A stretch of DNA of 64,000 bases from a virus (Duplodnaviria > Caudoviricetes): IMG/VR virus record IMGVR_UViG_3300025892_000008; one strand, given 5' to 3'. Positions 13,191 to 28,829 of the stretch are shown one piece after another (the first letter of the stretch is position 1; each line of letters opens with the position of its first letter). The notes beneath the pieces are model-generated. The model was given only the letters and a program-made list of their open reading frames with translations. It made no database searches and was not told the DNA's origin. Both the position numbers and the translations under genes were made by a program.

Positions 13191-13586
13191 CTATGATGAT
13201 TCTTGGCTTAATCTTTTACTCAAAGCCTTGTTATATCCTAGTTTTTGGACATCTCCACTAAAAAGATATAGTTCAAATGCAGCCTTCTCCTTTAATACTG
13301 ATATTGATCGTTTAGTAATATAATACGGTGAATCTATAAATTTGTCAAGCCATAAAAGTATCTGTGGAGTAATAGAAAAGTCTTTCGGAAAGTCAATCTT
13401 ATAGATTTTGATTTCGGATTCATTCTTAATAAAATCCATTGCTTGGTCTGTTAGTCTTAGTCCACCATCATTTTTAACACGCACATTCCACCACCAATCC
13501 ATTCTTTTGCTCTTTACTAGTTCGGCAGTAATGTCTAATTCAGCGGCTTTTAAAAAAATATTTGTGTAATTGTCTTTAACGTCCAT
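13191..13586 (-). CDS. hypothetical protein
   Basis: 131 aa ORF. Confidence 0.7.
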   Translation of the reverse strand: MDVKDNYTNIFLKAAELDITAELVKSKRMDWWWNVRVKNDGGLRLTDQAMDFIKNESEIKIYKIDFPKDFSITPQILLWLDKFIDSPYYITKRSISVLKEKAAFELYLFSGDVQKLGYNKALSKRLSQESS

Positions 13587-14628: not shown

Positions 14629-15617
14629 ACTGTATACCTCGCATTTAACGGCTCAGCATATGCTTGCGCCTGATCTGAAATTTTCTTTAAATCGTATAAG
14701 TGACAAAACTTCATCAACCTTACACCGACTTGGCTTATATTTTTATCTGCATCAATTGCTGTTTTAATTGTGCTTTCAATCTTTTCTTTAATATCTGCAG
14801 GTTGTGCAGTAAGATCAATAATAGTTTTATTACGTTCGTAATCTTCTAGTACACGATGTTCTTCACCGTTATGATCAACCCAACGTTGTAACATTAGGTT
14901 ATTCCAATTAAATCCTTTAGTTTGTCTATCTGCAAATGCTTCAACAAGACCAACTTTGTTCTTAGAGCCTTTTTTGCGTACACCTGGATATGCACTAAAC
15001 ACATTATCACTAGTATCGCCACGCATACATTTCTCAAACAACATCCATTCAGCATCTACAACCTTAGGCAGTTTAGTCTTCTTGTCAATAACTAGTTCGC
15101 CTTTCTTGTCAAAGAAGCCTTCTGGTGTAGTAGTAACTTCTTGCACACCATTATAAAGTCTACAGTTAGGAGCAATTAACTGTTGAAAGTCTGTGTCAGT
15201 ACTAACAATAACATGATCTGCATCTGGGTGTTGCTGTACCCAACCAGCAATTAAATCATCTGCTTCTAGCTCTTTGTGTTGTAATACAGTACAGTTAGTT
15301 TTATCTGTAACAAAATTCTTAAATGTATCAAATGCTTCCCAGAACACAGTATCTTCTTCTTGCTGTTTTTCTGTAAGTGCATCACGAGCAACTTGTCTGT
15401 TACGCTTATAAGGCTCATAATGGTCTTTACGCCAACTACGTCCTTCTAAGCAGAACACAACATGTGAACCGTTAAAGTCTTGCCATGCCTTCTTAATGCT
15501 GTTAAGTGTAATATGAAAAGCCATACCTAACTTAACATCTGCATCACCATTAATTACATGTCTTGCACGAAAGAATGTATTTGCTGTATCAACTATTATA
15601 TGTGTCATTTTACTCAT
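14625..15617 (-). CDS. rnh: T4 RNase H-like 5'-3' exonuclease (FEN family)
   Basis: IIVDTAN, CLEG, EADDLI, VSTDTDFQQL and GDTSDNV motifs. Confidence 0.9.
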   Translation of the reverse strand: MSKMTHIIVDTANTFFRARHVINGDADVKLGMAFHITLNSIKKAWQDFNGSHVVFCLEGRSWRKDHYEPYKRNRQVARDALTEKQQEEDTVFWEAFDTFKNFVTDKTNCTVLQHKELEADDLIAGWVQQHPDADHVIVSTDTDFQQLIAPNCRLYNGVQEVTTTPEGFFDKKGELVIDKKTKLPKVVDAEWMLFEKCMRGDTSDNVFSAYPGVRKKGSKNKVGLVEAFADRQTKGFNWNNLMLQRWVDHNGEEHRVLEDYERNKTIIDLTAQPADIKEKIESTIKTAIDADKNISQVGVRLMKFCHLYDLKKISDQAQAYAEPLNARYTV

Positions 15618-15964
15618 TTAGCCTTCTTTATGATATCTGGATCTATACTTCCAGTATCTAGTGGTCCTCCGTAGTCACCATCGACTACAACGTTTGCACA
15701 AAGTTCTCGAAACCAACGATCAACAATATCTTCATCCTTGTCACCATCAACTCCATATCCTTGTTGTTTTAATTGTACTATGAAATGGTCGTTCCAGTCA
15801 AGCTCAAAAAAGCCATTTCGGACATTTTCTTTGTTTACATGTGTATTCAATACACCAACCCATGGTTCTTTCTTCATCGTTGCCTTTTGTTTATCACTAA
15901 TTCCAGGCGCAGACACATCAGTATCAGGTTGTTTCTTACTGAACAGTTTCTTTATAAAGTTCAT
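15614..15964 (-). CDS. hypothetical protein
   Basis: 116 aa ORF with AAGGA SD. Confidence 0.7.
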   Translation of the reverse strand: MNFIKKLFSKKQPDTDVSAPGISDKQKATMKKEPWVGVLNTHVNKENVRNGFFELDWNDHFIVQLKQQGYGVDGDKDEDIVDRWFRELCANVVVDGDYGGPLDTGSIDPDIIKKAK

Positions 15965-15973
15965 AATTTATCC

Positions 15974-16885
15974 TTATGTTCCGATAGCATTACCAAACAA
16001 GTATACATGTACCCTTGCGGCTACATTATATCCACGTTCGAATGCCATCTTAGCAACTGCTCCGGCTGTTGCTGTTTGTTCTTCTTCTCTAGCACCTACA
16101 GGCATAACCCATACAGGATAATTTACACCTTGTGCCTTAAATTGTGAGATAGCATCTTCCATCTCATCCCACTGTTGTTGTTCGGAACCTACAACAAATT
16201 TTAATTGTCCTATAGACAACTTACTATACTGTGCAACTATCTCAGGCTTAATTGCTTTCTTTGCAGCCTCGCCTGCTACACTCCACAGTTTAGGACTTAC
16301 ACTAAAGAACAGTTCGATTTCGTTATCTGCTTCATAAGTCCAGTAATTAATAAATTCTTGTGTTAATGCTTGTGTACCATTAGTTTCAAATGTAACACTA
16401 GCAGGCATATTGCCCATACTCTTAAACTCACGCATGATACCAATGAATGCTTCTTGTCCGTGCTTCATCAACGGCTCACCACCTGTAACACAAAAGTGTT
16501 GTCTTTGTTGTGTAACAGGATGTAGAAACAAACCTTGTGGATTGCTATCTGTTTTAAGTGTATCAATAATTTGTTGTGCTAGTTCAACAGCAGTCTTTTG
16601 ACCCATTAAGTGTTTAAACTTTTTGCTCCATGTGTAACTACTATCACAGCCTTTGTCCCATACAGGCAAATCTTCTACACGTTTTACAGTTGAAGTATCA
16701 AATGTTTCAAACGGCAAATCATATGTATCAGGATTAGTAGGATCAATCTGACCAAATCCGTTACACTGTAAGTTGCATAAGAAAAACCGTATCCAAGCAG
16801 TAGGCACACCTGTATAGTGTCCTTCACCTTGAATACTGTGAAAGATTTCGCTGTAGTAATATTTCTTATCAGTTGCTATTGTCAT
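15974..16885 (-). CDS. queE: 7-carboxy-7-deazaguanine synthase (QueE-like radical SAM)
   Basis: EIFHSIQGEG, WIRFFLCNLQC...GCDS, VTGGEP, FETNG, SVSPK and RVHVYL motifs; start set to ATG 16885 downstream of a sigma70 promoter. Confidence 0.88.
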   Translation of the reverse strand: MTIATDKKYYYSEIFHSIQGEGHYTGVPTAWIRFFLCNLQCNGFGQIDPTNPDTYDLPFETFDTSTVKRVEDLPVWDKGCDSSYTWSKKFKHLMGQKTAVELAQQIIDTLKTDSNPQGLFLHPVTQQRQHFCVTGGEPLMKHGQEAFIGIMREFKSMGNMPASVTFETNGTQALTQEFINYWTYEADNEIELFFSVSPKLWSVAGEAAKKAIKPEIVAQYSKLSIGQLKFVVGSEQQQWDEMEDAISQFKAQGVNYPVWVMPVGAREEEQTATAGAVAKMAFERGYNVAARVHVYLFGNAIGT

Positions 16886-17081
16886 TATGTTTATTATACG
16901 CTTTCTTATTGGATTTGTCAACCTCTTTAGTAAGTGAAAAGGAGCCATCGAAATTGTCTGTCCAAACTAAATCGTCTCCAATATCCCATCCCATTTGGTT
17001 TAGTAACTCAGTGGGAATAGGAAGAACCAAATCCTTCGATTTCGGATCTTCCTTTAATTTGATTTTTTGGGTACTAGTCAC
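16869..17081 (-). CDS. AbrB/MazE/SpoVT-like swapped-hairpin protein
   Basis: DLVLPIPTELLNQMGWDIGDDLVW...DGSFSL; probable GTG start at 17081. Confidence 0.55.
   Translation of the reverse strand: MTSTQKIKLKEDPKSKDLVLPIPTELLNQMGWDIGDDLVWTDNFDGSFSLTKEVDKSNKKAYNKHNDNSN
16893..16921 (-). promoter_or_regulatory. sigma70-type promoter for queE
   Basis: TTGACA-N17-TATAAT. Confidence 0.8.
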
Positions 17082-17283
17082 CAAAATGCTTGTCCAGCAT
17101 TTCGACTCTATCATGTGCAGTTGCCATTTTATCTAACTCTTTTTGGATAGTTTCGATAATATCGCTATGCTCACCAATTCCTACAACCTGTTGCATGTAT
17201 ACTTCAATATTGGCTTTATGCAGATCAATTTCTGCCTCAGCATGCTTCCTTGCTGCATTGATTAATGTTTGTTTCAATGTCAT
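17074..17283 (-). CDS. hypothetical helical protein
   Basis: 69 aa ORF with AAGG SD. Confidence 0.7.
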   Translation of the reverse strand: MTLKQTLINAARKHAEAEIDLHKANIEVYMQQVVGIGEHSDIIETIQKELDKMATAHDRVEMLDKHFGD

Positions 17284-17663
17284 AACCTTTCCTTATAGTT
17301 TTGTTTTGATGGAATTACGCCGCGAACGCCGCCTCTAGGATTCTCCGTATCGCCATCACGACGGAAAATTAAGTGAACATGTGGATAAAGACAAGTTTGT
17401 CCGGCACTCTTGCCCATATTGATACCCACATTGTAACCTGTAATATTGTTATTCTCTGACTTAATGTTGTCATTACCCATAGTAAGAGCAAAATTAAAAC
17501 ACTTTAAAATGTTTTCTTCTGTATTTTGTCTAGGTACAACAAGTGTATGCCCTTCTGTAACAGGATAGATATCGTTATACACAACAAATTCACGTGTATC
17601 AATCTCGACTTGTTTCCAAGGAGCTCTACCATCTTGTTGTGCTATTTCTAAAGTGTCTGTCAT
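17280..17663 (-). CDS. HIT family nucleotide hydrolase (variant triad Y-x-H-x-H)
   Basis: DIYPVTEGHTLVVPR, YNVGINMG and GQTCLYPHVHLIFR. Confidence 0.85.
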   Translation of the reverse strand: MTDTLEIAQQDGRAPWKQVEIDTREFVVYNDIYPVTEGHTLVVPRQNTEENILKCFNFALTMGNDNIKSENNNITGYNVGINMGKSAGQTCLYPHVHLIFRRDGDTENPRGGVRGVIPSKQNYKERL

Positions 17664-17980
17664 TCTTCTAGTCCTGAAACATATTCTTCAAATTCTTCTT
17701 GTCCGTACCATGTTTTAAAATCTTCTTGAAAGTCTTCGTCTTCTTGAGCATAGTGCCAAATCACATCTTGTTGATCTTGCGGAAGTCCATTAAACTCAGA
17801 ACGGAAATACCCTGCTTGTTCATAAGAAGCGTCTTCTCTTGCTTCTTCAGCACGACCCCAATCTTCTTCATCATCGCTATCGCCAATTTCATCTGCTTCT
17901 GACCAACTATCATATGCCATTGAATGTGCTTCTTCATTTATATCACTGATGATAGTGTGTGCCTCTTCTTTAGTTAACAT
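17660..17980 (-). CDS. acidic hypothetical protein
   Basis: ATG 17980 with GGAG SD; very Asp/Glu rich. Confidence 0.7.
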   Translation of the reverse strand: MLTKEEAHTIISDINEEAHSMAYDSWSEADEIGDSDDEEDWGRAEEAREDASYEQAGYFRSEFNGLPQDQQDVIWHYAQEDEDFQEDFKTWYGQEEFEEYVSGLEE

Positions 17981-18128
17981 TATTAATGTACTCCTTAATG
18001 TACCATTCTTTAAATTCTGGATTATCGTTAAAAATAGCAACTACTTCAGGAGCAGAAATTTGTTCAGATCTAATACATACTGCTACACTTTTCCAATCTT
18101 CTTTATCGTAAATTACTTTTATTGTCAT
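17970..18128 (-). CDS. small hypothetical protein (52 aa, not in the ORF track)
   Basis: Hand-translated MTIKVIYDKEDWKS...EYINNVN; fills the gap with TAATG coupling. Confidence 0.6.
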   Translation of the reverse strand: MTIKVIYDKEDWKSVAVCIRSEQISAPEVVAIFNDNPEFKEWYIKEYINNVN

Positions 18129-18358
18129 TAAAATCCTCTACCTTTGTTAATTTGAAATATTCTAGGACCAGGTGTTGTAAATTCAAACCCCATCTTATTA
18201 CCAACATAAACTCTACCGTTATATTCCATATGTATTTTATTTGTTGCTAGAAAGATATCTAGAAACTCTTTTTCTTTAAATCTATCAACTTCTGCCTCTG
18301 CTACTTTGTCATTATCTGTGCAAGTAACTGTGCATACATTATCATGTCCTGTTGGCAT
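18128..18358 (-). CDS. hypothetical protein
   Basis: MPTGHDN... with GGAG SD and TAATG coupling. Confidence 0.65.
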   Translation of the reverse strand: MPTGHDNVCTVTCTDNDKVAEAEVDRFKEKEFLDIFLATNKIHMEYNGRVYVGNKMGFEFTTPGPRIFQINKGRGF

Positions 18359-18915
18359 TAATACTCTCCTACATTTTCCCAAGGATAAACTAACCAAACA
18401 TCTTCCTCAGATTTATTAACTTCATCACAATAGTAATTAACTAAACCAAATTCGCTTGATAAGTTTTCTGTTAATACTGCAAAGCGAACATTATCTCCCC
18501 ATGCTTGATCCCATATAGGCGATTGAGGTAAACAACTGGATTTCCAATCATCTCTAATCCAGTTAAATGTTGCACCAGTATCATTTATATCATCTACAAT
18601 AAGAATGTTTTTGCAATTAGTATCGTGTTTAAACTGCCCCATCTCAGGAGCATAGTCTCCACTATCATCGTAACCATATGCATCTTCGGCCATCCAACAG
18701 TTGCTTTCACTTTCACTAGTATCATCACGTAGACTTACTTTAATCGCTTCGCAACGTATGCCAGTCATGTTACTAATAATAGTAGCAGGAACATTACCAC
18801 CACGTGTAATACCTACAATGTAATCAGGCTTCCAGTTGTCAGCATACATTTTGTTTACAATATTAACGCACATTTTTTCTACGTCAGCCCAACTATAATA
18901 TTTCTTTTTAATCAT
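18358..18915 (-). CDS. type I purine phosphoribosyltransferase (Gpt/Hpt-like)
   Basis: IVGITRGG and PRPP-binding loop ILIVDDINDTGATF; C-terminal WLVYPWE. Confidence 0.85.
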   Translation of the reverse strand: MIKKKYYSWADVEKMCVNIVNKMYADNWKPDYIVGITRGGNVPATIISNMTGIRCEAIKVSLRDDTSESESNCWMAEDAYGYDDSGDYAPEMGQFKHDTNCKNILIVDDINDTGATFNWIRDDWKSSCLPQSPIWDQAWGDNVRFAVLTENLSSEFGLVNYYCDEVNKSEEDVWLVYPWENVGEY

Positions 18916-19387
18916 TGCGTCCTTCCAAATATTTTTCATTATGTACCCAACGGTATCCTAATGTTTTTACAAAAGGTAAAAAGCCCCATTCCTTTTGTTT
19001 CTTGCCCATATAGAACAAACTCCAACAAGGAATCTCTTTACCGTCTTTATCTTCCTTAAGTTTTAGGTAATGCAGATCATCTGATGATCTAAACCTAAAA
19101 TGCCCAGGCCCACGCCATCTTGCTGTGGCTCCTACTACGTTACCTTCTTGACTATAACAAGGAATGTATTCATAGTATCCGCCTTTTAAAATAAGTGTTG
19201 CATACGACCACGGATGATCGTGTAGTACTGACTCATCACTTACCATAACTTTGTGTAGTGTTATGTTAAAAGGAAAGTTCTTTCGTTCCTTTAAAAACAA
19301 ATAATAACGATCAAGATAAGGTATTTTACCATCTCTATCGTATATAGTTCTTTTTCTACCTAACTTATCAAGCAGTTTCAACAACAT
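18908..19387 (-). CDS. cupin-like (double-stranded beta-helix) protein
   Basis: LHDHPWS...GGYYE...LH metal-ligand pattern. Confidence 0.5.
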   Translation of the reverse strand: MLLKLLDKLGRKRTIYDRDGKIPYLDRYYLFLKERKNFPFNITLHKVMVSDESVLHDHPWSYATLILKGGYYEYIPCYSQEGNVVGATARWRGPGHFRFRSSDDLHYLKLKEDKDGKEIPCWSLFYMGKKQKEWGFLPFVKTLGYRWVHNEKYLEGRND

Positions 19388-19775
19388 CAAAAACCTCTTC
19401 CTTTAAATAACGTTTTAACTCACCGTCAATGGGTTGTACGTTATAGTTATCTTTGAAAAATATCTCATAACTATCAGAGCCATATTTTCCAATTCCGTAT
19501 AACATTGTAGCATCATTTCCGTCCCAAGTCAAGTAATCTTTTGACATTCTACGTAGCCGGTGTTCACGTACATTAACCATTCCTAATGGTTTAATAATCA
19601 TTTTAATTGTATCTGGCGCAGTATTAATCAAATGTACTGGTGTAGGACAAATACCAAATAACAAAGGTAATACTCTTTTTACTTGTTTACGGTTTGTTTG
19701 ATTAAGACAGATAACACCTACCATGTGTTGCCAAGAGCCATCAATTTGCTGTTGCACCATAAGTTCGTCTTTCAT
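19368..19775 (-). CDS. HhH-GPD DNA glycosylase, MBD4-like
   Basis: W...ICLNQT...KPLG...LYGIGKYGSDSYEIF closely parallels the MBD4 glycosylase domain. Confidence 0.75.
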   Translation of the reverse strand: MKDELMVQQQIDGSWQHMVGVICLNQTNRKQVKRVLPLLFGICPTPVHLINTAPDTIKMIIKPLGMVNVREHRLRRMSKDYLTWDGNDATMLYGIGKYGSDSYEIFFKDNYNVQPIDGELKRYLKEEVFDVVETA

Positions 19776-19981
19776 CCTAGTGTGACCCAATTACTATGTT
19801 TCGGCTTGAACAAAGAATAAACCTGTTTTACTCTTTTGTTATATTCTTCTTCATTCACCGAAATATTATTTAGGTGTTGTCTCCAAATTCTTTTCATATC
19901 GTCTGAAAGTTTTGGGTTTGCTAGAATTAATTTTAAACTTGCTCTACGCTGAGACTGTTTGATTTCCGAATAAGGTCCCAT
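19772..19981 (-). CDS. hypothetical protein
   Basis: 69 aa ORF. Confidence 0.6.
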   Translation of the reverse strand: MGPYSEIKQSQRRASLKLILANPKLSDDMKRIWRQHLNNISVNEEEYNKRVKQVYSLFKPKHSNWVTLG

Positions 19982-20177
19982 AATTTATTCCTTTCATTGG
20001 ACAATTCTTTCTACTCATTCTTACAATGTGTGGTGTAAGATTATGTAACTTAGTCATATCAATTAGTTTTATACCACGTAAGTTAAACATGAGTGCTTCA
20101 TTAGGTGTAAGAATTCTAATATCGTTCTGAGTTTTTTGCGGTTGAAGTGCATAAACTCTTTCTTCATTAAGATTCAT
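19944..20177 (-). CDS. hypothetical protein
   Basis: 77 aa ORF with TAATG coupling. Confidence 0.5.
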   Translation of the reverse strand: MNLNEERVYALQPQKTQNDIRILTPNEALMFNLRGIKLIDMTKLHNLTPHIVRMSRKNCPMKGINYGTLFGNQTVSA

Positions 20178-20425
20178 TATACTATTTCCTCAACTATTCC
20201 TAACACTTCTGCTAAAAATAATACTGCTCCACCAAGCATCATTAAAAATCCTGCATCAGCAATAAAAATATCAGTGTACTCGTTTGCTGTCCATAAAATA
20301 TATCCTGCAACAGCCATTAAGCCTGATGCTATAAATCTAAATATACTTTTTACAATACTAACTGCAAAGTGTCCTAAGCCGGGATCTTTAGCCGCAGGAA
20401 CAAATACTCTTTCTGGAATAGGCAT
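20177..20425 (-). CDS. small membrane protein (2 TM)
   Basis: Two hydrophobic segments. Confidence 0.65.
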   Translation of the reverse strand: MPIPERVFVPAAKDPGLGHFAVSIVKSIFRFIASGLMAVAGYILWTANEYTDIFIADAGFLMMLGGAVLFLAEVLGIVEEIV

Positions 20426-20607
20426 TATTTTACCTCCACAAGTGGATCACTTAAAAAACTATCATGGTAGTCACCACTTTTATGAAACTGCCTGATTGAA
20501 GTCTCCTTAATCAGGTGCCCATTCTTTATAGTATACGTAACATATTCTGCTTTGATCATACCTTCCGTGCTTCTGTTGATATGTTCAGTCATAGGTCCAT
20601 CTTTCAT
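20425..20607 (-). CDS. hypothetical protein
   Basis: 60 aa ORF with AGGAG SD. Confidence 0.6.
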   Translation of the reverse strand: MKDGPMTEHINRSTEGMIKAEYVTYTIKNGHLIKETSIRQFHKSGDYHDSFLSDPLVEVK

Positions 20608-20617
20608 TTATATCTCC

Positions 20618-21307
20618 TTATTGATTACAAGCATATGATTGTTGAAGTTTAATGTTATCCATAAACTCTTTCTTAGTAGCCGCATCGTCTTTGAATGCAC
20701 CTTTAAGAACAGTTGTTTGTGTAAGACTACTGTGTGCCTTAACACCCCTATTCTCAACACAACCGTGTGTTGCTTGTATATACACACCTAAGTGTTCTGC
20801 ACCTGTTGCTTTTTGTATTTCACGGGTAATATCATTTGCAAGTTCTTCTTGCAATGTACCACGTTCAGCACACCATTGTGCAATACGTGTATACTTAGAC
20901 AAGCCAATTAGTTTGTCTGCGGCAATTATACCAATGTATGCTACGCCTCTTACAATCTGATGATGATGTGAACACATACTTGTTAGTTCTGAACGTACTA
21001 CTAGCATACCTTCATAACGTGAAGCACTGTCATTTGGAAATGCTGTTGCACTAGGAATAGGATCATAACGTCCTGCCATTAGTTCATTGATATACATCTT
21101 TGCAAGACGTTTACCAGTTCCCATACTGTTAGGGTCATTATGCCTGTCAATTACAAGTGCATCTAGTACACCTTCAAACTTCTCGGCGGCTTCGTTGATA
21201 AGTTGTTCTTTTTCGCCTTCAAAAATAAAGTCACTGATATTGTCACCTGCCCAATATCTATTTTCTGTATCTTGTAAGCGTTTTGCTATTTCTTCGTATT
21301 TCTTCAA
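20618..21307 (-). CDS. folE: GTP cyclohydrolase I
   Basis: SMCSHH, GLSKYTRI, LQEEL and HGCVENRGV (Zn ligands C/H/C); TTG start after GGAG. Confidence 0.93.
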   Translation of the reverse strand: MKKYEEIAKRLQDTENRYWAGDNISDFIFEGEKEQLINEAAEKFEGVLDALVIDRHNDPNSMGTGKRLAKMYINELMAGRYDPIPSATAFPNDSASRYEGMLVVRSELTSMCSHHHQIVRGVAYIGIIAADKLIGLSKYTRIAQWCAERGTLQEELANDITREIQKATGAEHLGVYIQATHGCVENRGVKAHSSLTQTTVLKGAFKDDAATKKEFMDNIKLQQSYACNQ

Positions 21308-21346
21308 TTTAATCTCCGATGTTAACGCAGTGGATTGCGTATAGTA

Positions 21347-22387
21347 TTAATGTAACACGTCTAGTAAACCTTTGCAACTAAAATAATCTCCATTCAGTTT
21401 GTTTACTTGTTTATTTAGGTCTGGAAGATAGTTTTTATAATTTTCCATGTATTCTGTAATAAGATTCATTACTTTGGGTTTGTTCTTTTTATATGAATCT
21501 AATGAATCTGTCCATTCACTTGGATATTTAAACTTAGGTAATGCCATTTCAGAATAACTTAACCTATCTGGAACCATTGGAATTGCACCAACAATTGCAC
21601 CTTCATACCAACTTATACCTAGTGTTTCTTGTAAGTTGGCACTAAACACAATTTTTGCTTCTCCTAGTAAGTTGTGATATTCGTTCTTTGAAAGATCTCG
21701 TTCTTGACAAACCACAAAGTTATATTGTGGTAATGCTTCTTTCAAGTCTTGGAATATTGATAGTTGTTTTTCAGGAGCAATCCTGTGTGGGAATAATATA
21801 GTATCCTTTTTAGGCATTCCTTTATACATTGTAAGTGTATCTTCCATGTATTCAAAAGGCCAACCTGTTCTTACTATTTTTTGTTTATCTAAATCAGGAA
21901 AGGCTTTAAAGAACATAAGAATATGGAATTCACTTGCAAAGAAATTATGATCAAAACATTCATACATACTTCTTTCAGCATTTCTTACCCAAGGCTTATC
22001 GCCAATTATCCTACCAAGAAAATCAGCAGGATCGTAACTGCCAGCATGCCATAACCCACCAATTCTGATCTTAACATTAAGTAGCTCAGCCATGTATTTA
22101 AGTTGTATAACAGACGGGTTCCAAGCATCTGTATATAGGAAATAATCCCCATCCTTTACTTCTCCTTTGCAAAATGCATCAGCAATCTGCATCAATTGAT
22201 TTGATTTGTAAACATTAGTCCCACCAAAGTTGAGGAACGCACCAGGTGTTGTTGCCTGTGGCGTATCCCCTCCATTGACTACTCGCACTTTATGGCCGTG
22301 AGCTTCTAGCAGTTTAGGAAACTTTGTTTTCCACTGTTTAGTGTATCGTGTTTCTACTGCTTCAAGATCAACTAGCCAAATATTCAT
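21347..22387 (-). CDS. GT-B (GT4-type, retaining) glycosyltransferase inside the deazaguanine cluster
   Basis: FPHRIAPEK and the E-x7-E motif ETLGISWYE, followed by GAIPMVPDRLSY. Confidence 0.8.
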   Translation of the reverse strand: MNIWLVDLEAVETRYTKQWKTKFPKLLEAHGHKVRVVNGGDTPQATTPGAFLNFGGTNVYKSNQLMQIADAFCKGEVKDGDYFLYTDAWNPSVIQLKYMAELLNVKIRIGGLWHAGSYDPADFLGRIIGDKPWVRNAERSMYECFDHNFFASEFHILMFFKAFPDLDKQKIVRTGWPFEYMEDTLTMYKGMPKKDTILFPHRIAPEKQLSIFQDLKEALPQYNFVVCQERDLSKNEYHNLLGEAKIVFSANLQETLGISWYEGAIVGAIPMVPDRLSYSEMALPKFKYPSEWTDSLDSYKKNKPKVMNLITEYMENYKNYLPDLNKQVNKLNGDYFSCKGLLDVLH

Positions 22388-22590
22388 CTGCGCTTACTCC
22401 TTTTATCTTTAAATTTCCGATTACCTTTACTAAATGCTCTCCATACATAACTAGAGTTATTATAGAGATCCTTTTCATGAAAAGGATAAAAGTTACCACG
22501 GTTGTCACTGTTAAAGCGACAAAAATTTTTGAATTGTTCAAGATCGTTAAAAACCTTATCGTAGGCTCTACGATTGAATTGAATCGCCAT
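22384..22590 (-). CDS. hypothetical basic protein
   Basis: 68 aa ORF with ATGA overlap to the GT gene. Confidence 0.6.
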   Translation of the reverse strand: MAIQFNRRAYDKVFNDLEQFKNFCRFNSDNRGNFYPFHEKDLYNNSSYVWRAFSKGNRKFKDKRSKRR

Positions 22591-22602
22591 TTTAATAATC
22601 CT

Positions 22603-23043
22603 CTATCTAGCATACTCAATGTGGGCACCGTTTTCTCCATCTTCACTTACGTCAATATGGACTTCACGGCCTGGGTGTTTAGCAATAATTTGTTCATATA
22701 AATCATCACTCATCATTTCACAACTTTTATAATCTAATTCAATTGTCTTCTCCTCATACAGTTTCTCAAGCCAACGCTTGAATTGGATGAATTCAATATC
22801 TCTGTCGTTGTGTGTAACAGTGATACCTACCTTAAAATGAAATATGTGTCTATGGGGATAACCCAAAAAACTAACATCATATTCATCTCCTGTTGCAAGA
22901 CTAGGATCATCTAGTGCCGCAGGATACTTATGGATACCTTCTTTAGTAAAGGTTACCCAAATCATTCGTTTTGCTGTAGACATAATGCGTCTATGATTGT
23001 CTTCTGCTGTTGCTTCTTTTATCATTGTTTCCATTGTACTCAT
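22603..23043 (-). CDS. QueD-paralogous T-fold protein, DpdL-like (true start probably 23034 or 23025)
   Basis: LGYPHRHIF (LxxxHRHxF rather than the QueD CxxxHGH), IEFI, SCEM and VSEDGENGA. Confidence 0.65.
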   Translation of the reverse strand: MSTMETMIKEATAEDNHRRIMSTAKRMIWVTFTKEGIHKYPAALDDPSLATGDEYDVSFLGYPHRHIFHFKVGITVTHNDRDIEFIQFKRWLEKLYEEKTIELDYKSCEMMSDDLYEQIIAKHPGREVHIDVSEDGENGAHIEYAR

Positions 23044-23072
23044 AGTATACTACCTTTTTGTTCTGTTGTCAA
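23044..23072 (-). promoter_or_regulatory. sigma70-type promoter for the T-fold/GT/folE block
   Basis: TTGACA-N17-TATACT. Confidence 0.75.
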
Positions 23073-23073
23073 G

Positions 23074-23577
23074 TTAGTCTTTAATATCATCATCGCCATA
23101 TTTGCTCCAATCCGTAAACTTATTGCGTTGTAATAGTGGATGAATATTGTGTACCCATACACCCGGATTAGAATGATCAAAGTCTGCATCATCAATCTTA
23201 ATACAAGCATTGTAGTTAAGTTGATTTACGTATGGCAGTTTAACACTAATCATACTAATAAAGTTATGATTCTCATTAAACCCACTTTCAAGTATCCATT
23301 CATGATACTTTACATCATAGTCTAATGTAACTAAAAATTTCTTATTAAGTAGGCCTTGTACAAGATCTTCCCAACTTTCTTTTGGAACAAAACTGTGATT
23401 AGCACCTAAGTAAATATGGTCAACTGTGTGTTCTTTTGCTTTTGCAAGAACATCTTCTAATGGTTGACATCCTGTTACAAACAGTGTATGCATTTCATAA
23501 GCAGGAGTTTTCTCTACTTCATATCCTGTAAAGTAAGTAACATCTTCTTTTACACCATCTGCATATTCTCGTTTCAT
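23074..23577 (-). CDS. hypothetical protein adjacent to the TGT-like gene
   Basis: 167 aa ORF with HIYLGANHSF, KIDDADF and PGVWVH motifs. Confidence 0.75.
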   Translation of the reverse strand: MKREYADGVKEDVTYFTGYEVEKTPAYEMHTLFVTGCQPLEDVLAKAKEHTVDHIYLGANHSFVPKESWEDLVQGLLNKKFLVTLDYDVKYHEWILESGFNENHNFISMISVKLPYVNQLNYNACIKIDDADFDHSNPGVWVHNIHPLLQRNKFTDWSKYGDDDIKD

Positions 23578-23753
23578 TCAGCGTTTACCTTTTCTAACCT
23601 ATCAATTTGGTCTTTCATTTTTAATCGACTACGTTTCATTTCAGATATTTCTTCATCTGCAAACCTACCGGTTTTTTCCATAGTATCAATTTTTTTATTT
23701 AGGAAATTGTGTGTTTCTTTTAAAACTTTTAGTCTCTGAGTGTAGTCACCCAT
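23574..23753 (-). CDS. small DUF465/YdcH-like coiled-coil protein (59 aa, not in the ORF track)
   Basis: Hand-translated MGDYTQRLKVLKETH...EMKRSRLKMKDQIDRLE; GGAGG SD and ATGA coupling. Confidence 0.65.
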   Translation of the reverse strand: MGDYTQRLKVLKETHNFLNKKIDTMEKTGRFADEEISEMKRSRLKMKDQIDRLEKVNAE

Positions 23754-23754
23754 T

Positions 23755-25302
23755 TTACGCCTCCTGTAGTTGTTGCTCTAGTTTATCTAGTTCACCATCT
23801 TCTCTATCATCTGCCCAAGGTGTTTTTTCTTCACCTTCTTCGTCTACTTCTACAAACATTCTGTTAAACTCATTGGTAACACCACCACGTAGTCTTGCAC
23901 CTTCTAAGTTTTTAAGGAAACTGTCACCTTCTTTAATCATAGCAAACGCTGCTTCTTTAGTAGGCTGTTCGAACAGTTCTTCGACAAATTTATCAAAGTA
24001 TAAAATGTTACGCGGCACCCAATCAGAATATTCATCACTCTTATCTGCTTCTTTTACTTTTCTCCAACTTCTCCAGTCTGGACGATCCTTTGCCAATTCA
24101 ATATCTGTTAAGTTGTTAGCACGTTGTACCGCAACAATATGTTGATAAACGTTATGTGCCATCATTAGTGCATAACCAAAACTATCCCAAGATGTTTTAC
24201 CTTCTTTACCAATCTTGTTTAACATACCTGGAGCATAATGACAAATGTCAGCAATGCTTAGTCGTCTACCAATTTCACTTTCGAAAGGAAAAGGAATATC
24301 GTGCCTCTTGGCAAGTGCTTTGTTATCAGGAGCCTTGTCCATTATAACTGACCATCTCTTACTTGTATGCTGGCTGTTAGTGTACACTAGTCCGTGTGCT
24401 GTAGCAATAAAAGGACTTGCACAATCAAAACTAACTGTAAAGTTCTCATTAATGTGTTTTCTAACCTGTCGTTGAATTGAAGTAAGATAACATGACCAAT
24501 CAAGTTGTGCAGTACCTAAGAAGTGCATCCAGTCCTTGCCTTCTAGCATACCATCAAATTTCATAGTCATTATACGTCTTAGTGTAATAGGCATTTTGCA
24601 CATATTAGCGCCACCCATTGCCCAGCCTTCACAAGCCTTGTCTTTCCATATAGCAGGATCGGAGAATTCTTTAACACCTTCGTACCACCTTTCAGCAGTA
24701 TCCCAGTCTGAACCCTGTAATACATTTAAGAACTTAGTTGCACCAAGTCTGCGCTCTAACCAATATTTGTTATTAAATCTTGTTTTTTCTAAACAATCTT
24801 CAAAACTCTTTAGTCCTGTTTTAGGCGAATGAATATGATCACATGCCCAAGTAGGAACGTCAAGTAGCATACTCCAGTCTGCTGTAAGTTCGAGCCAATT
24901 AAGAATATCTTCTCTAACCTTATTAGCAGCAGGACCTTCAAAGTTTAGCCAATCAAATTTAAGAACACCTTTACCAACTTGATAACCACCTGAGTCACCA
25001 AGTATCATAGTGTTGCCACGATCACGTGTTTGCACCATACTGTCTTGATCCATTGTTTTATCAAGATTTAATTGTGCGTGTCCTGCGGAATACAATCCAT
25101 ATTTGTATGTAAAGTATCCTTCTTCTTCATTTAAAAAGTTCATACCTTCGATGCCGCGATCAAAGCCTTGCGGAATACGGTCAGTTGGAACGAACTCTTG
25201 CTTACGTTGTTTAGCAATATAAGTGCTGAAGAAAGAACTAATAGCAGGCAAATACACTGCGTAGTCTTTCTGTAATGGTGTTAAGTTGACTGGTTTTTTC
25301 AT
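23755..25302 (-). CDS. dpdA: tRNA-guanine transglycosylase-fold protein, probable DNA 7-deazaguanine transglycosylase (DpdA-like)
   Basis: GDSGGYQ, LLDVP, VLQG, WAMGG, HFLG, FDCASP and AHN motifs; co-located with folE/queE and directly downstream of the clamp and polymerase. Confidence 0.75.
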   Translation of the reverse strand: MKKPVNLTPLQKDYAVYLPAISSFFSTYIAKQRKQEFVPTDRIPQGFDRGIEGMNFLNEEEGYFTYKYGLYSAGHAQLNLDKTMDQDSMVQTRDRGNTMILGDSGGYQVGKGVLKFDWLNFEGPAANKVREDILNWLELTADWSMLLDVPTWACDHIHSPKTGLKSFEDCLEKTRFNNKYWLERRLGATKFLNVLQGSDWDTAERWYEGVKEFSDPAIWKDKACEGWAMGGANMCKMPITLRRIMTMKFDGMLEGKDWMHFLGTAQLDWSCYLTSIQRQVRKHINENFTVSFDCASPFIATAHGLVYTNSQHTSKRWSVIMDKAPDNKALAKRHDIPFPFESEIGRRLSIADICHYAPGMLNKIGKEGKTSWDSFGYALMMAHNVYQHIVAVQRANNLTDIELAKDRPDWRSWRKVKEADKSDEYSDWVPRNILYFDKFVEELFEQPTKEAAFAMIKEGDSFLKNLEGARLRGGVTNEFNRMFVEVDEEGEEKTPWADDREDGELDKLEQQLQEA

Positions 25303-25310
25303 AATGTTAT

Positions 25311-26048
25311 TTAGGCCGCCTGTGCTGGAATGATATATTTGTAATTTGCTAATCCACTATCTAGTGTAATTTGAATAGCACCTTCGTTTGAAATACTCAT
25401 CTTAGTATTATTAACATCAGCAATTTTAAGGATAGCAAGAATACTAGCCACTGGCCAAGTCCAACCTTTATCTAATGTACCTTCAACATTTTGTGCGAAT
25501 ACAAATTCACCACCATGTGTACTTGCATCACCAAAGATAAACTTCAAGTTATTATCTTCAGTTTTTGCTAAGAACGTTGGATGTTCAGGATTAGCGCCTG
25601 CTTGGAAACTAAACCTTTGTACTGCTGGCAAAGTTGGAGTTACCTCAACATTCCAGTTAACACCACGAAACTTAACAGTTTTCATTTTTTCGTTAATAAT
25701 TTCTTGATTCATAAAACGATAGTCGTTTTTAAAATCACCATCAGCATTTTCAAAATGAATACCTACTGGAATAGTAGCACCATTTCTTTCAGCATTTGTA
25801 ATAGTAATTTTTGCATCCTTTTGATATTCAGTACCATCAATTAAGTATTTCAACTTATTAAGTTGAGGCATACCAAATGTACCAATCATATCTGGATACG
25901 GGTTATGTGTGTCTGCTTCCATAATAACTGATCTGTCATCAGCCATTGAAAACATTCCTGTCTTATCTTCTTCGCCAGATACCTTAACAGTTGTTAGGAA
26001 ACCTAAGTTCTGTGTGTGGCTGACGATATCTTGTAAAATGTCTTTCAT
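25311..26048 (-). CDS. DNA polymerase sliding clamp (gp45-like)
   Basis: 245 aa acidic beta-rich protein immediately downstream of polB; size and synteny fit. Confidence 0.6.
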   Translation of the reverse strand: MKDILQDIVSHTQNLGFLTTVKVSGEEDKTGMFSMADDRSVIMEADTHNPYPDMIGTFGMPQLNKLKYLIDGTEYQKDAKITITNAERNGATIPVGIHFENADGDFKNDYRFMNQEIINEKMKTVKFRGVNWNVEVTPTLPAVQRFSFQAGANPEHPTFLAKTEDNNLKFIFGDASTHGGEFVFAQNVEGTLDKGWTWPVASILAILKIADVNNTKMSISNEGAIQITLDSGLANYKYIIPAQAA

Positions 26049-26069
26049 TGAATTCTCCTATACATTTAC

Positions 26070-26098
26070 ATTATAATTAAGTTTTGTATAAAACGCAA
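26070..26098 (-). promoter_or_regulatory. sigma70-type promoter for clamp/dpdA
   Basis: TTGCGT-N17-TATAAT. Confidence 0.6.
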
Positions 26099-26106
26099 GT
26101 GCTTTT

Positions 26107-28770
26107 TTACTCAAAATCAAATAAACTGTTAAAGTTATTATCATTACGTGTTTGACTTATGTCCCATTCCAAAACGCCAATTAAGTTTTTAAGTTTTTCA
26201 TCGATAACTGTGTTTTCCATAGTAGCATCATCGAATGGTAACTCTTTGAACCAATCCGGAAGTCTTAGTTCGTCAACCGGATATGCTACACTGGTGTAAG
26301 CCATTGGATTATCTTTAACCTTACATACAATAACTTTTGCACCATCTGTTATGTTTACTGAGTACTTGTCGCCGTTCATACGTTTAAGTGTATTCCAATT
26401 GATACTTGCTCTTACGTGTCCAGGCATATTCACCTTACCTGCTTTCTTTTCCTTTGCTCCATACTCTGTAATCTTATTTGCACGCTTAGGAGAACCTTTC
26501 TCCCAACCTGGACGTGACTTAAACTCTGTTCTAAATTCAGTAATGTAGTCTAGTACATCTTCTTTGTCTTTACCTGCTAGTACCATTTCTAATACATTAC
26601 TCAAAAAGTCTTGAATAACAACAGGAGTATCAGAACGTTTCAAGTCTAAGCCCATTGCTTTAATCTTGCCTGCCTTGCCTTCTGTATCTGTTCTAAATCC
26701 TTCAATGTCATAGTATAACACTGCATAACGTTTCTTTGTAATAAACAGACCTTTACTTGCAACAATCTCTCTAGCAGCCGCAATAACTTCGGAACGTTTT
26801 TTAGGACAATGAAATGCTTGGCTCATAAACTTAGGAAATGTTGCATTAGCATTTTCGCCGATTGTATCATATAGTTCTATAACGCTGTCTTTTGTCCACG
26901 GAATACTACCTGCTTCAATATCTTTTTTCAGTGTGCTATACGCACTGAAGTATGTAGAGTCAGTGTCACCATAAACAATTGCTTTGCCTGTATGATCATA
27001 TTCGCCTGTTACTATCTCATTGATCTTAGCAGCCATATGTTTTGTGATACTTCTTCCTGTAAGTGTAACACTTTGACCGATCCTATTATCGAAAAACCTA
27101 CAACCAGGATTAAGAATAGCGCCATACAAACTGTTAAGTAGAATTTTCTTAACCAACTGTCGCTTTGCCCAGTATTCTTCTTCAATTTTGTTTCCTGCAT
27201 TTTGACTTTCTTTCTGTTTAGCCTGCATTTCTTTACGTTCTTTGTACCAACGTGCAAGTAGTCCAGGAATAATACCTTCTTTTTCGTATGTAAAGATTGT
27301 ACCATTAGCACTTAGCATCCAAGGTTGATTGCTTTCGTAGATTAAATCATATATCTGTGCGGCACTAAGTTTGTCATTGTCGCCATTTTCCCAGTCGACA
27401 GTAATCTCTCTGCTAATCTCTTTGTCCATTACAGAACTATATTCAACACTACCAAACATACCTTCCCATGCACTTGCAAATGATTTGCCCTTTGCCATCT
27501 GTCCATCGATATGTGCTTTTGTTCCTTCTTGACGTAGTTGTCCGACTACAGTCTCAGGACCCATATTCAATGCTCTAATAACAGACGGATACAGTGAATT
27601 CAAGTCAACACTGCCAATCCATTCATGAATACCTTTTTTAGGATAAGCAACATAAGCACCTGCCGCAGGCTCACTGCCTGGCTCACGTTTTACTCTGTTC
27701 GGAACAATCATTCCACGTCTGTGTGCTTCGTTGATAATACCTTGTTCTGTAACTGCAACAGCACCCATTGTTGTTTGTATAAGAACTGTGTTTTCATGTG
27801 CAATAGTATTTGCAAGATCGATAAACTTTAGTTTCTTGTCTAGTTTGTCAAGTAGTGCAGTATCTTGTCTATTGTATTCGATGAATGTTCTAAAGTCGTT
27901 GTTGTATAGTGCATCAAGACTACCTTCATAAACAGTTTTCTTTTCACCTACTTCTAGTTCACCAATAGCATCTAGTCTGTATGTATGGCGTTCTTCATAG
28001 TTGTACTTACGATATAGTTCTAAACTATCTACGTGTACACGACCAATTAGATCATATGTTTGTGATTCCTTACCAAACTTTTCATATATTCTTTTCTTAG
28101 GCTTTTGATCCCACAAGCACAAGCGTCTAGTATCATCTGCGCTTAATACTTTAATGATACGGTTAACAGTGTAAGGCATATCATAACCTTCACTGTTCCA
28201 ACCACTTAGTACATCAGCATCTTGAATAAGATCTAAAAAAGCATCAAGCATATCTGCTTCATTGTCATACAGTATTGTATTTGGAATACCTTCAATTGCT
28301 TTTTGTGCTTCTGCCATTGAAAGTGTCTTAGGAGGAATAGCCAAACAAATAAGTTCATCTAGCCACTGTAAATGCACAGCAATTGATGTAATAGGCATAA
28401 ACGCATCTTCTGGACTTGCGTACCCACGCTCAGGATCAAAGTCAACCTCGATATCCCAAAACGCTACATTTAGTTTAGGAGCATCAACGTTTAAATAGTT
28501 GTCTTCTAAACAGCGATAAATTGGATTTATATCGCTTTCATATAATTTATGATTAGAATGAATTGCAAGTTCCTTGCGCAATTCCTTAATGTTTTTTGCA
28601 GTTACACGCTGTAAAGGATCACCGTAAATAGATTGATGTTTGCCTCTTGGGTCTTTATAATAAAATACGTGTCTTGGGGAATATTCTGTAAAATGTCTTT
28701 TATTGTTTTTTCTTTCTACTACTCGAATAGTATCTTCACTTCGATCATAGAATGCATCTACGTAACTCAT
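26107..28770 (-). CDS. family B DNA polymerase (T4 gp43-like)
   Basis: Exonuclease motifs DIEVD, GWNSEGYD and YNRQD; polymerase motifs DLNSLYPS, KILLNSLYG and YGDTDS; ATG 28770 with AGGAG SD. Confidence 0.95.
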   Translation of the reverse strand: MSYVDAFYDRSEDTIRVVERKNNKRHFTEYSPRHVFYYKDPRGKHQSIYGDPLQRVTAKNIKELRKELAIHSNHKLYESDINPIYRCLEDNYLNVDAPKLNVAFWDIEVDFDPERGYASPEDAFMPITSIAVHLQWLDELICLAIPPKTLSMAEAQKAIEGIPNTILYDNEADMLDAFLDLIQDADVLSGWNSEGYDMPYTVNRIIKVLSADDTRRLCLWDQKPKKRIYEKFGKESQTYDLIGRVHVDSLELYRKYNYEERHTYRLDAIGELEVGEKKTVYEGSLDALYNNDFRTFIEYNRQDTALLDKLDKKLKFIDLANTIAHENTVLIQTTMGAVAVTEQGIINEAHRRGMIVPNRVKREPGSEPAAGAYVAYPKKGIHEWIGSVDLNSLYPSVIRALNMGPETVVGQLRQEGTKAHIDGQMAKGKSFASAWEGMFGSVEYSSVMDKEISREITVDWENGDNDKLSAAQIYDLIYESNQPWMLSANGTIFTYEKEGIIPGLLARWYKERKEMQAKQKESQNAGNKIEEEYWAKRQLVKKILLNSLYGAILNPGCRFFDNRIGQSVTLTGRSITKHMAAKINEIVTGEYDHTGKAIVYGDTDSTYFSAYSTLKKDIEAGSIPWTKDSVIELYDTIGENANATFPKFMSQAFHCPKKRSEVIAAAREIVASKGLFITKKRYAVLYYDIEGFRTDTEGKAGKIKAMGLDLKRSDTPVVIQDFLSNVLEMVLAGKDKEDVLDYITEFRTEFKSRPGWEKGSPKRANKITEYGAKEKKAGKVNMPGHVRASINWNTLKRMNGDKYSVNITDGAKVIVCKVKDNPMAYTSVAYPVDELRLPDWFKELPFDDATMENTVIDEKLKNLIGVLEWDISQTRNDNNFNSLFDFE

Positions 28771-28783
28771 TTTTTCTCCTATA

Positions 28784-28829
28784 TGCAATTTCAGGCTTGC
28801 AAATACCAATGTGTCGCTTAATGGCCGAC
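28784..28829 (-). promoter_or_regulatory. two hairpins immediately upstream of the polB SD (candidate translational operator)
   Basis: UGCAA/UUGCA stem at 28784-28801 and GUCG/CGAC stem at 28813-28829. Confidence 0.4.

Follow-up and report, generated by a model that had tools for sequence, protein, structure and literature searches.

A conserved glycosyltransferase module within DpdL-type 7-deazaguanine clusters of phages, and a candidate sugar-bearing DNA base

A 64,000-nucleotide stretch of viral DNA (IMG/VR record IMGVR_UViG_3300025892_000008; hereafter, the window, i.e., the whole stretch analysed) carries a gene cluster in which a phage replication machinery adjoins a 7-deazaguanine pathway. 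The cluster encodes a QueD paralogue of the DpdL clade, a putative transglycosylase of the DpdA type and a glycosyltransferase (GT) of the GT-B type, and comparison with related viruses indicates that this GT is clearly a conserved member of the module and not a stray gene. The DpdL/DpdA system itself is known; what is new, as far as we found, is the conserved GT module within DpdL/DpdA clusters. We give about even credence to the reading that this is a replisome-linked, DpdL-type 7-deazaguanine modification of DNA which would be further glycosylated by the built-in GT. The source is a marine giant phage, with a genome of about 350 kb as implied by the CheckV completeness of related fragments. 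The stretch is contained in marine metagenomes of at least eight studies, and a near-identity search of cultured phages with the cluster gave no match.

Every gene from 15974 to 28809 lies on the minus strand. Read along this strand, the order is family B DNA polymerase (polB), clamp, DpdA-like protein of 515 amino acids (aa), DUF465 protein (59 aa), p167, DpdL (146 aa), basic protein (68 aa), GT (346 aa) and FolE, followed by several small genes and by HhH-GPD, cupin-like, phosphoribosyltransferase (PRTase), HIT, QueE-like and RNase H genes (Table 1). An initial annotation of the window had listed polB, a clamp, a gene with the fold of tRNA-guanine transglycosylases (TGT), two small genes, a T-fold gene, a GT-B gene, folE and queE, and all of these are indeed present, adjacent and in one orientation.

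Association of the glycosyltransferase with DpdL

Among cultured phages, a DpdL homologue was found in 28 records, and in 17 of them, which fall into five groups, a GT homologue lies within a few kb. The gene order is DpdA-GT-DpdL in PA5oct-like phages, DpdL-GT-x-FolE in Phosso, p167-DpdA-GT-DpdL-QueE in ACP17, where the genes overlap or abut, and GT-DpdA-DpdL-QueE in X1/BUDD; in BCSR5, the GT stands beside DpdL and/or DpdA. We also examined 80 related viral contigs or loci, to which all counts out of 80 refer. The GT is beside DpdL in every one of them (80/80), while p167 is present in 77 and DpdA in 74. Thus, the conservation of the GT with deazaguanine genes in relatives, which had been put forward at the outset as a check, came out strongly positive, counting at least six lineages of cultured phages besides these contigs.

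The GT had initially been linked to dpdA. The two genes do co-occur, but the GT tracks DpdL rather than DpdA as such, because in Vibrio phage 2.275.O a relative of the DpdA-like protein sits with QueF, YhhQ, QueC, Gat, FolE and QueE and has neither a GT nor DpdL beside it. The genes that follow DpdA in this Vibrio phage and in a second Phosso locus were considered as candidates and proved unrelated to the GT. Also, DpdL occurs without a GT in phiST, in which 7-deazaguanine has been measured as a DNA base (dDG), and in RHph_I1_18, whose DpdL is 60% identical to the 146-aa protein of the window. The GT is thus an optional add-on to the DpdL pathway.

The sugar enzymes beside the GT vary by lineage. 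For example, a GHMP kinase and a sugar-phosphate nucleotidyltransferase (NTP_transferase) directly follow the GT in L185, a distant metagenomic relative, the PA5oct cluster includes gp320, a protein resembling epimerases/dehydratases of the short-chain dehydrogenase/reductase (SDR) type (PF01370), and a PIG-L/LmbE-type deacetylase-like protein lies beside the GT in X1 and BCSR5. In the related locus L183, a different GT occupies the GT slot. Such variation suggests a real and diversifying glycosyl transfer.

A separate observation concerns locus L101 (82% DpdA identity), in which a 78-residue N-terminal GT fragment (13286-13519) stands before the full GT (14815-15906), with about 1.3 kb between them. 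The locus (further positions 17929-18024 and 19138-19890) also has a second copy of a 32-residue piece of FolE, placed beyond an open reading frame (ORF) of 280 aa in reverse orientation, and a GIY-YIG homing-endonuclease gene nearby. These fragments point to mobile-endonuclease traffic inside the module.

Three cultured phages serve here for comparison. The Cellulophaga phage phiST, which has FolE, QueD, QueE, DpdL and DpdA3 and complete dDG (Hutinet et al., NAR 2023, PMC10516641), is the only DpdL phage with measured chemistry in this comparison. The marine phage resembles it in its FolE, QueD and QueE, in a DpdL with the LxxxHRHxF signature, in a transglycosylase of the TGT superfamily, in the lack of a canonical QueC in the cluster, and in clustering with replication genes. 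In contrast, phiST is without GT, p167, PRTase and HIT and has a MazG-like and a P-loop protein instead, and its likely DpdA3 (gp042, 259 aa, an identity taken from the gene numbering) aligns only marginally to the 515-aa family (hhalign 56% over 83 columns). The Acidovorax phage ACP17 shares the same five-gene core (identities of 36% for p167, 38% for the GT and 52% for DpdL; hhalign 96.9% for DpdA). It differs in being a 156-kb T4-like phage with QueD and FolE inside the cluster and with no PRTase or HIT. Its GT is nowhere mentioned in the main text of PMC10516641.

The third, the Pseudomonas jumbo phage PA5oct (Wroclawvirus), has a syntenic arrangement, in the order polB-clamp-DpdA (41%)-GT (47%)-DpdL (57%)...PRTase-QueE-RNaseH. 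As in the marine phage, QueD lies apart from the cluster; the complete genomes of PA5oct and Phosso carry both QueD and FolE elsewhere and no QueC. PA5oct also brings experimental evidence for a modified G: its DNA resists restriction enzymes that cut at G-containing sites and is targeted by nucleases sensing hypermodified DNA, one of them specific for G-modified phages, according to a preprint in which mass spectrometry of bases is given for other phages only and not for PA5oct (PMC12191111). It differs by an SDR epimerase-like gene in the cluster, by p167 lying about 28 kb away, and by its DpdL, since PA5oct-like DpdL (L001:11763-12140) has HFH where all other compared members of the clade have HRH.

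Enzymes of the core and supply of the precursor

The initial annotation had given LxxxHRHxF as the DpdL signature, read the TGT-fold gene as a DpdA and called the third enzyme GT-B from an E-x7-E motif, and all three proposals hold. The DpdL signature LxxxHRHxF stands in place of the CxxxHGH of QueD (Hutinet et al., NAR 2023, PMC10516641). Besides this motif, the 146-aa T-fold protein is placed in the DpdL clade by its identity to DpdL of ACP17 (52%, E 9e-33) and of phiST (CGPG_00067; 34%, E 5e-11), and by the alignment, in which it shares the deletion of the DpdL clade relative to QueD, the QueD insertion being missing. The function of DpdL as a decarboxylase converting 7-carboxy-7-deazaguanine (CDG) to 7-deazaguanine (DG) is a prediction, and heterologous tests of it failed (PMC10516641). 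In these tests, dpdL and dpdA of ACP17 expressed alone in E. coli gave no dDG, and the authors proposed that additional enzymes might be required (PMC10516641).

The 515-aa protein is, by homology, a divergent DpdA-type enzyme accompanying DpdL. Scans with Pfam and NCBIfam returned no match, with PF01702 absent even at E 10, so its relationship to TGT and DpdA is argued from hhalign to the proteins at the DpdA position in ACP17 (96.9%, 424 aa), X1 (96.0%, annotated as queuine tRNA-ribosyltransferase) and BCSR5 (87.6%). The family is very large: when 8,000 candidates were scored, more than 7,700 of the clusters at 90% identity matched, and at 50% identity there are 877 representatives; annotation is absent throughout. 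An alignment of 64 diverse members showed D103, S104, G106, H260 and D293 to be invariant, with the consensus GDSGGFQ, which reads LGDSGGYQ at residues 101-108 of the window's protein. D293 lies in SFDCASPF, and the aligned stretch in ACP17 and X1 reads SYDS. D103 and D293 would be the equivalents of the catalytic aspartate pair of tRNA-guanine transglycosylases, with D293 as the presumed nucleophile. A profile search of PDB reached a solved TGT at E 1.6, aligned at DSGGYQ with TDSGGYQ of the Z. mobilis enzyme, and weak PF01702 matches were obtained in 4 of the 64 relatives (best E 0.0045). Also, queuosine-precursor genes are neighbours of the DpdA-like relatives in every case.

The GT is a Glycos_transf_1-type GT-B enzyme, catalytically intact by motif. 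In QETLGISWYE, the two glutamates form E254-x7-E262, and both of them, together with R202 and E206-K207, are invariant in 13 orthologues down to 28% identity. PF00534 is matched by 6 of these 13 orthologues (best E 8e-12), although the 346-aa protein of the window gives no match itself; the orthologue from L185, at 36% identity, reaches 31 bits where the gathering cut-off is 26.4. A PDB profile search with the GT family (E up to 10) returned GT4-type enzymes as the three best hits, at E 0.23, and otherwise ribosomal proteins, and the language-model neighbours of the GT in a protein atlas are PF00534 carriers. A single-sequence AlphaFold2 model was unusable (predicted local distance difference test, pLDDT, 44).

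Two other identities were considered for this GT and rejected. A relation to QTMAN/GTDC1, the tRNA-queuosine mannosyltransferase, was discarded as its N-terminal domain (PF12038) was found neither in the 13 orthologues (E up to 1) nor at the GT loci of PA5oct, Phosso, ACP17, X1 and BCSR5 searched in six frames. The solved chains of the T4 alpha- and beta-glucosyltransferases (AGT/BGT; GT63/GT72) were not reached by the GT profile in PDB at E up to 10. The parallel with T4 alpha-glucosyltransferase drawn in the initial annotation is thus reduced to an analogy. The T4 enzymes are phage GT-B enzymes too, and they decorate a modified DNA base, 5-hydroxymethylcytosine (5hmC), after replication; here, however, the acceptor would be a purine analogue without hydroxymethyl, the profile is closest to GT4-type chains, and the orthologues are acidic. 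The nearest chemical precedent, compared by description only, is HuiG, a GT-B-type enzyme (PF13439) which glycosylates a 7-deazaguanine-derived base with UDP-N-acetylglucosamine (UDP-GlcNAc) in huimycin biosynthesis (10.64898/2026.04.15.718813). HuiG acts on a 7-deazapurine base, but it belongs to actinomycete secondary metabolism and its acceptor is free O-methylated preQ0.

As for the supply of the precursor, tblastn with seven phage queries detected no homologue of QueC, QueF, Gat or QueD in the window. The initial statement that QueC and canonical QueD are not visible in the window is therefore right; the phage does have QueD beyond the window end, and a weak QueC-like gene lies further out (see below). 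These flanks were traced outward by exact-protein look-ups in metagenome contigs. QueD (149 aa; PF01242, E 1.6e-14) carries the motif HCHLLHGY, which it shares with other phage QueDs, and its gene is located 5.5-6 kb past the window end and about 46 kb from the dpdA-like gene. It belongs to a string of overlapping genes (L188:3907-7296, 5.5-9 kb beyond the window) which also encodes a synthase of 3-deoxy-D-manno-octulosonate (Kdo) 8-phosphate (E 1e-100), a CMP-Kdo synthetase, a weakly GT8-like protein and a phosphomannomutase (PMM)-type enzyme of the haloacid dehalogenase (HAD) class. Activated Kdo made by the phage beside QueD could be a sugar donor, or could belong to an unrelated auxiliary pathway of lipopolysaccharide (LPS) type; QueD of PA5oct and Phosso has no Kdo-type neighbours. 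Neither QueD nor QueC was found in eight fragments of 75-155 kb from the same lineage in IMG/VR, which says little because these fragments stop short of the QueD site.

Table 1. Genes and promoter-like signals of the cluster, with positions in the window.
Feature	Coordinates	Strand	Evidence and remarks
Family B DNA polymerase (polB)	26107..28770	-	PF00136 E 8e-34, PF03104, phrog_262 E 2e-197; ATG at 28770
Sliding-clamp-like protein, 245 aa	25311..26048	-	phrog_12062 E 5e-36
Putative divergent DpdA/TGT-superfamily transglycosylase, 515 aa	23755..25302	-	Motifs, hhalign; acidic C-terminal tail
DUF465 coiled-coil protein, 59 aa	23574..23753	-	PF04325 E 9e-11; in 9/80 related loci
p167, alpha/beta fold, 167 aa, conserved partner	23074..23577	-	77/80 related loci, always between DpdA and DpdL
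Sigma-70-like promoter TTGACA-17-TATACT	23044..23072	-	11/12 consensus matches; gap upstream of DpdL gene
DpdL-clade T-fold protein, 146 aa	22603..23043	-	LGYPHRHIF; QueD paralogue without catalytic Cys
Basic protein, 68 aa, between DpdL and GT	22384..22590	-	Isoelectric point (pI) 10.3; 62/80 related loci; no family match
GT-B glycosyltransferase (Glycos_transf_1 / GT4-like), 346 aa	21347..22387	-	E-x7-E, orthologue PF00534 matches
GTP cyclohydrolase I (FolE)	20618..21307	-	PF01227 E 4e-37; NF006824 E 5e-41
Small HhH-GPD (EndoIII-like) protein	19368..19790	-	PF00730 E 2e-6; position varies
Cupin-like protein, 160 aa	18908..19390	-	phrog_4786 E 1e-29; 51/80 loci; directly downstream of GT in most relatives
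Purine (xanthine/guanine-type) PRTase	18358..18939	-	PF00156 E 4e-11; NF006613 E 3.5e-12; 69/80 loci
HIT-family nucleotide hydrolase/transferase	17280..17663	-	PF01230 E 1e-7; NF045834 E 7e-12; 53/80 loci and L185
Sigma-70-like promoter TTGACA-17-TATAAT, perfect	16893..16921	-	12/12 matches; just upstream of QueE start 16885
QueE-like radical S-adenosylmethionine (SAM) enzyme (CDG synthase)	15974..16948	-	phrog_2076 E 6.5e-53

Other genes and signals of the locus

For polB, a longer frame with a TTG start runs up to 28809, while gene calls in identical metagenome contigs give 887 aa. The clamp shares 33-37% identity with the proteins at the same position in PA5oct and Phosso, the Phosso protein being an annotated sliding clamp. 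The replication block is bounded at 57154-63909 by a gene for a 2251-aa protein with a weak match to the N-terminal part of T4 gp9/gp10, which is probably a baseplate or fibre component.

In ACP17, a p167 homologue immediately precedes DpdA, and PA5oct-like phages have theirs at another site of the genome. The AlphaFold2 model of p167 had a pLDDT of 90, and a structure search with it found no significant relative; the longest alignments were to QueE chains (Z 6.0-6.4). Kinship with STAS domains or with QueE was rejected, as values of Z 6-7 are in the noise range and non-diagnostic. A PDB profile search was empty and the protein atlas returned only low-score rows resembling leucine-rich repeats (LRR). 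The 'glycosylase' of Phosso and gp320 of PA5oct were also rejected as p167 homologues.

Several genes of the module point to reactions at the nucleotide level. The PRTase is found at the corresponding place in PA5oct (L001:12946-13380), and such enzymes recur beside DpdL: PRTase and HIT here, and in phiST a MazG-like nucleoside triphosphate (NTP) pyrophosphohydrolase with a P-loop protein (L096:8421-9802). These neighbours are not easily reconciled with a model in which dDG arises only by base exchange after replication. In some relatives, the HhH-GPD gene is found between those for polB and the clamp. Because host defence nucleases and glycosylases sensing modified G share the fold of its product, this protein may be a decoy or may serve in repair, with an adaptation to the modified base. 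For the cupin-like protein, the protein atlas gave only a weak lead to CDO_I.

The QueE-like protein shares 42% identity with the orthologue of Vibrio phage 2.275.O and 36% with QueE of PA5oct, and it matches the QueE models of NCBIfam at E 1e-10, below their cut-offs. Its radical-SAM cluster spacing is unusual, with CNLQC, an insertion of about 40 residues, and then GCDS. Since a perfect promoter lies within the long QueE ORF, the true start is probably at 16885, and gene calls on identical contigs make QueE 303 aa long. The sigma-70-like sites are consensus matches whose total number is not above that in shuffled sequences; the two best sites on the minus strand lie in gaps. Two marine metatranscriptome runs contain contigs over the whole cluster (15500-26200) at even depth, as expected from DNA carry-over, so that transcription is not demonstrated by these contigs.

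Proposed pathway, alternatives and significance

We propose the following pathway. FolE, QueD and QueE would convert GTP to CDG, a chemistry which is established for these families. The DpdL-clade protein would then turn CDG into the base that is used, which according to the published prediction is 7-deazaguanine, formed by decarboxylation. The divergent DpdA-type enzyme would swap guanine in the phage DNA for this base, as suggested by its homology, its context and the restriction resistance of PA5oct, and the GT-B enzyme would use a nucleotide-sugar as donor to glycosylate the deazaguanine, either as a free base or once inserted. The sugar would probably depend on the lineage. PRTase and HIT would probably constitute a nucleotide-level side arm, which either recycles the guanine released by DpdA back to GTP or makes a deazaguanine nucleotide, and p167 would be a further conserved partner. 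The initial proposal that G is replaced by CDG or DG and then receives a sugar is thus partly supported: the gene families and the association of the GT stand, and the chemistry stays conditional. As a consequence of this pathway, the virion DNA of this phage and of PA5oct, ACP17, Phosso, X1 and BCSR5 would carry a glycosylated 7-deazaguanine, a prediction that we place just short of evenly balanced. The sugar is expected to differ by lineage because the neighbouring sugar genes differ: a hexose or another sugar where there are a kinase and a nucleotidyltransferase, GlcNAc or glucosamine (GlcN) where there is an LmbE-type deacetylase, and possibly Kdo in this phage.

Several points weigh against a glycosylated base. 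The decarboxylase activity of DpdL is a published prediction, unproven even in the founding members, and the base chemistry of this phage and of all GT-bearing relatives is inferred. 7-Deazaguanine presents no obvious hydroxyl, so that the sugar would have to be attached as an N- or C-glycoside or, in the case of the carboxy form, as an ester; the candidate acceptor atoms of 7-deazaguanine are N2, O6, C7 and C8. The GT and the TGT-like protein of the window are themselves below every Pfam cut-off. With pI 5.0-6.5, all orthologues of the GT are acidic, unlike what is expected for a DNA-binding enzyme, and thus a small-molecule acceptor, i.e., the free base before insertion, is no worse a fit than DNA. 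In some phages, distant relatives of the GT (23% identity) are found with no deazaguanine genes close by, and the marine phage does have a QueC-like PP-loop gene, about 60 kb from the dpdA-like gene. One of the distant relatives belongs to Xanthomonas phage PhiXhv-15 (L187:4816-8050), where the 23%-identity homologue is accompanied by GlmS and a BshB/LmbE-type deacetylase, with no deazaguanine genes within 7 kb. This cluster may be another glycosylation system using the same GT family.

The acidity of the GT and the lack of a hydroxyl acceptor on 7-deazaguanine would also suit a phiST-like system with plain dDG or dCDG, in which the GT is linked to the pathway without decorating the final base, either as a helper or scaffold of DpdA/DpdL or by modifying an intermediate that is later deglycosylated. 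phiST is fully replaced by dDG without any GT, and helpers are plausible given that DpdA3-type enzymes could not be reconstituted. Nevertheless, we consider this explanation unlikely, as the catalytic E-x7-E, R202 and E206-K207 are invariant, and as the lineage-specific genes for nucleotide-sugar supply and tailoring argue for a real transfer under diversifying selection, typical of surface or DNA decoration. A related explanation is that GT, PRTase and HIT make a soluble glycosylated or ribosylated 7-deazapurine, i.e., a metabolite of the huimycin or toyocamycin kind or a nucleotide pool, while DpdA inserts the plain base. The PRTase is indeed conserved, in the related loci (69/80) as in PA5oct, ToyH-type PRTases act on preQ0 in toyocamycin biosynthesis, HuiG acts on a free 7-deazapurine, and the GT is acidic here too. 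However, the module is placed within replisome genes and adjoins DpdA, the clusters of ACP17, X1 and Phosso have the GT with no PRTase seen, and no export or self-resistance genes were seen, which makes a soluble product improbable.

The QueC-like gene raises the question of an ordinary preQ0 or 7-amido-7-deazaguanine (ADG) pathway, in which a PP-loop protein would turn CDG into preQ0 or ADG for insertion by DpdA, the GT being unrelated. A queC elsewhere in the genome had been named initially as an observation that would speak for such a pathway, and what we found is a divergent gene with a weak match, so that this objection is not fully cleared. The protein (228 aa; P0392, L193:8070-8756), encoded about 20 kb beyond the window end, combines the PP-loop motif SGGADS with a QueC-like CGKCFWCQER, and it matches PF06508 at E 0.0023; its 17.9 bits are nevertheless below the cut-off of 22, and its alignment to a true phage QueC, that of Vibrio phage 2.275.O, is confined to these two motifs. 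Moreover, its gene is away from the deazaguanine genes, inside a tailoring island with at least seven radical SAM proteins, proteins resembling 2-oxoglutarate (2OG)/Asp-Arg hydroxylases, SDR epimerases and UDP-glucose dehydrogenase. No homologue of it was found in PA5oct, Phosso, ACP17 and BCSR5, which share the GT-DpdL module, and DpdL phages are defined as lacking QueC (PMC10516641). An ordinary preQ0 pathway is thus unlikely in this phage, and we leave only a slim probability to the whole scheme with an unrelated GT. Finally, membership of the TGT superfamily and the giant size of the phage would agree with an enzyme that modifies host or phage tRNA instead of DNA, but in every relative its gene is flanked by the clamp and by replication genes, its nearest relatives are DpdA-position proteins of DpdL phages, the virion DNA of PA5oct is modified at G, and the family consensus has just one conserved Cys left at the TGT zinc site. 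A tRNA target therefore seems very improbable.

Glycosylation of a DpdL-derived 7-deazaguanine, on DNA or before insertion, is the reading that we retain. A search of the literature found no paper on glycosylated 7-deazaguanine in DNA or on a GT in these clusters. Up to 2023, eight natural 7-deazaguanines had been described as bases of DNA, all with small substituents, and the glycosylated DNA bases that we know of are hydroxymethyl or hydroxy pyrimidines. If the pathway is true, its product would therefore be the first purine analogue with a sugar to be described in DNA, as far as we found, and a new class of DNA hypermodification. It could explain why DpdL and DpdA of ACP17 failed in E. coli without their neighbour genes, and also the modified G of PA5oct, a therapeutic candidate phage. 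As the module is abundant, both in DpdA-like clusters and across at least eight metagenome studies, the sugar-bearing base would be common in ocean viral DNA. Sugar-bearing 7-deazaguanine is thus a concrete hypothesis, testable in cultured relatives, which would bear on the evasion of restriction, on type IV and glycosylase defences, and on biases in nanopore and PCR-based sequencing.

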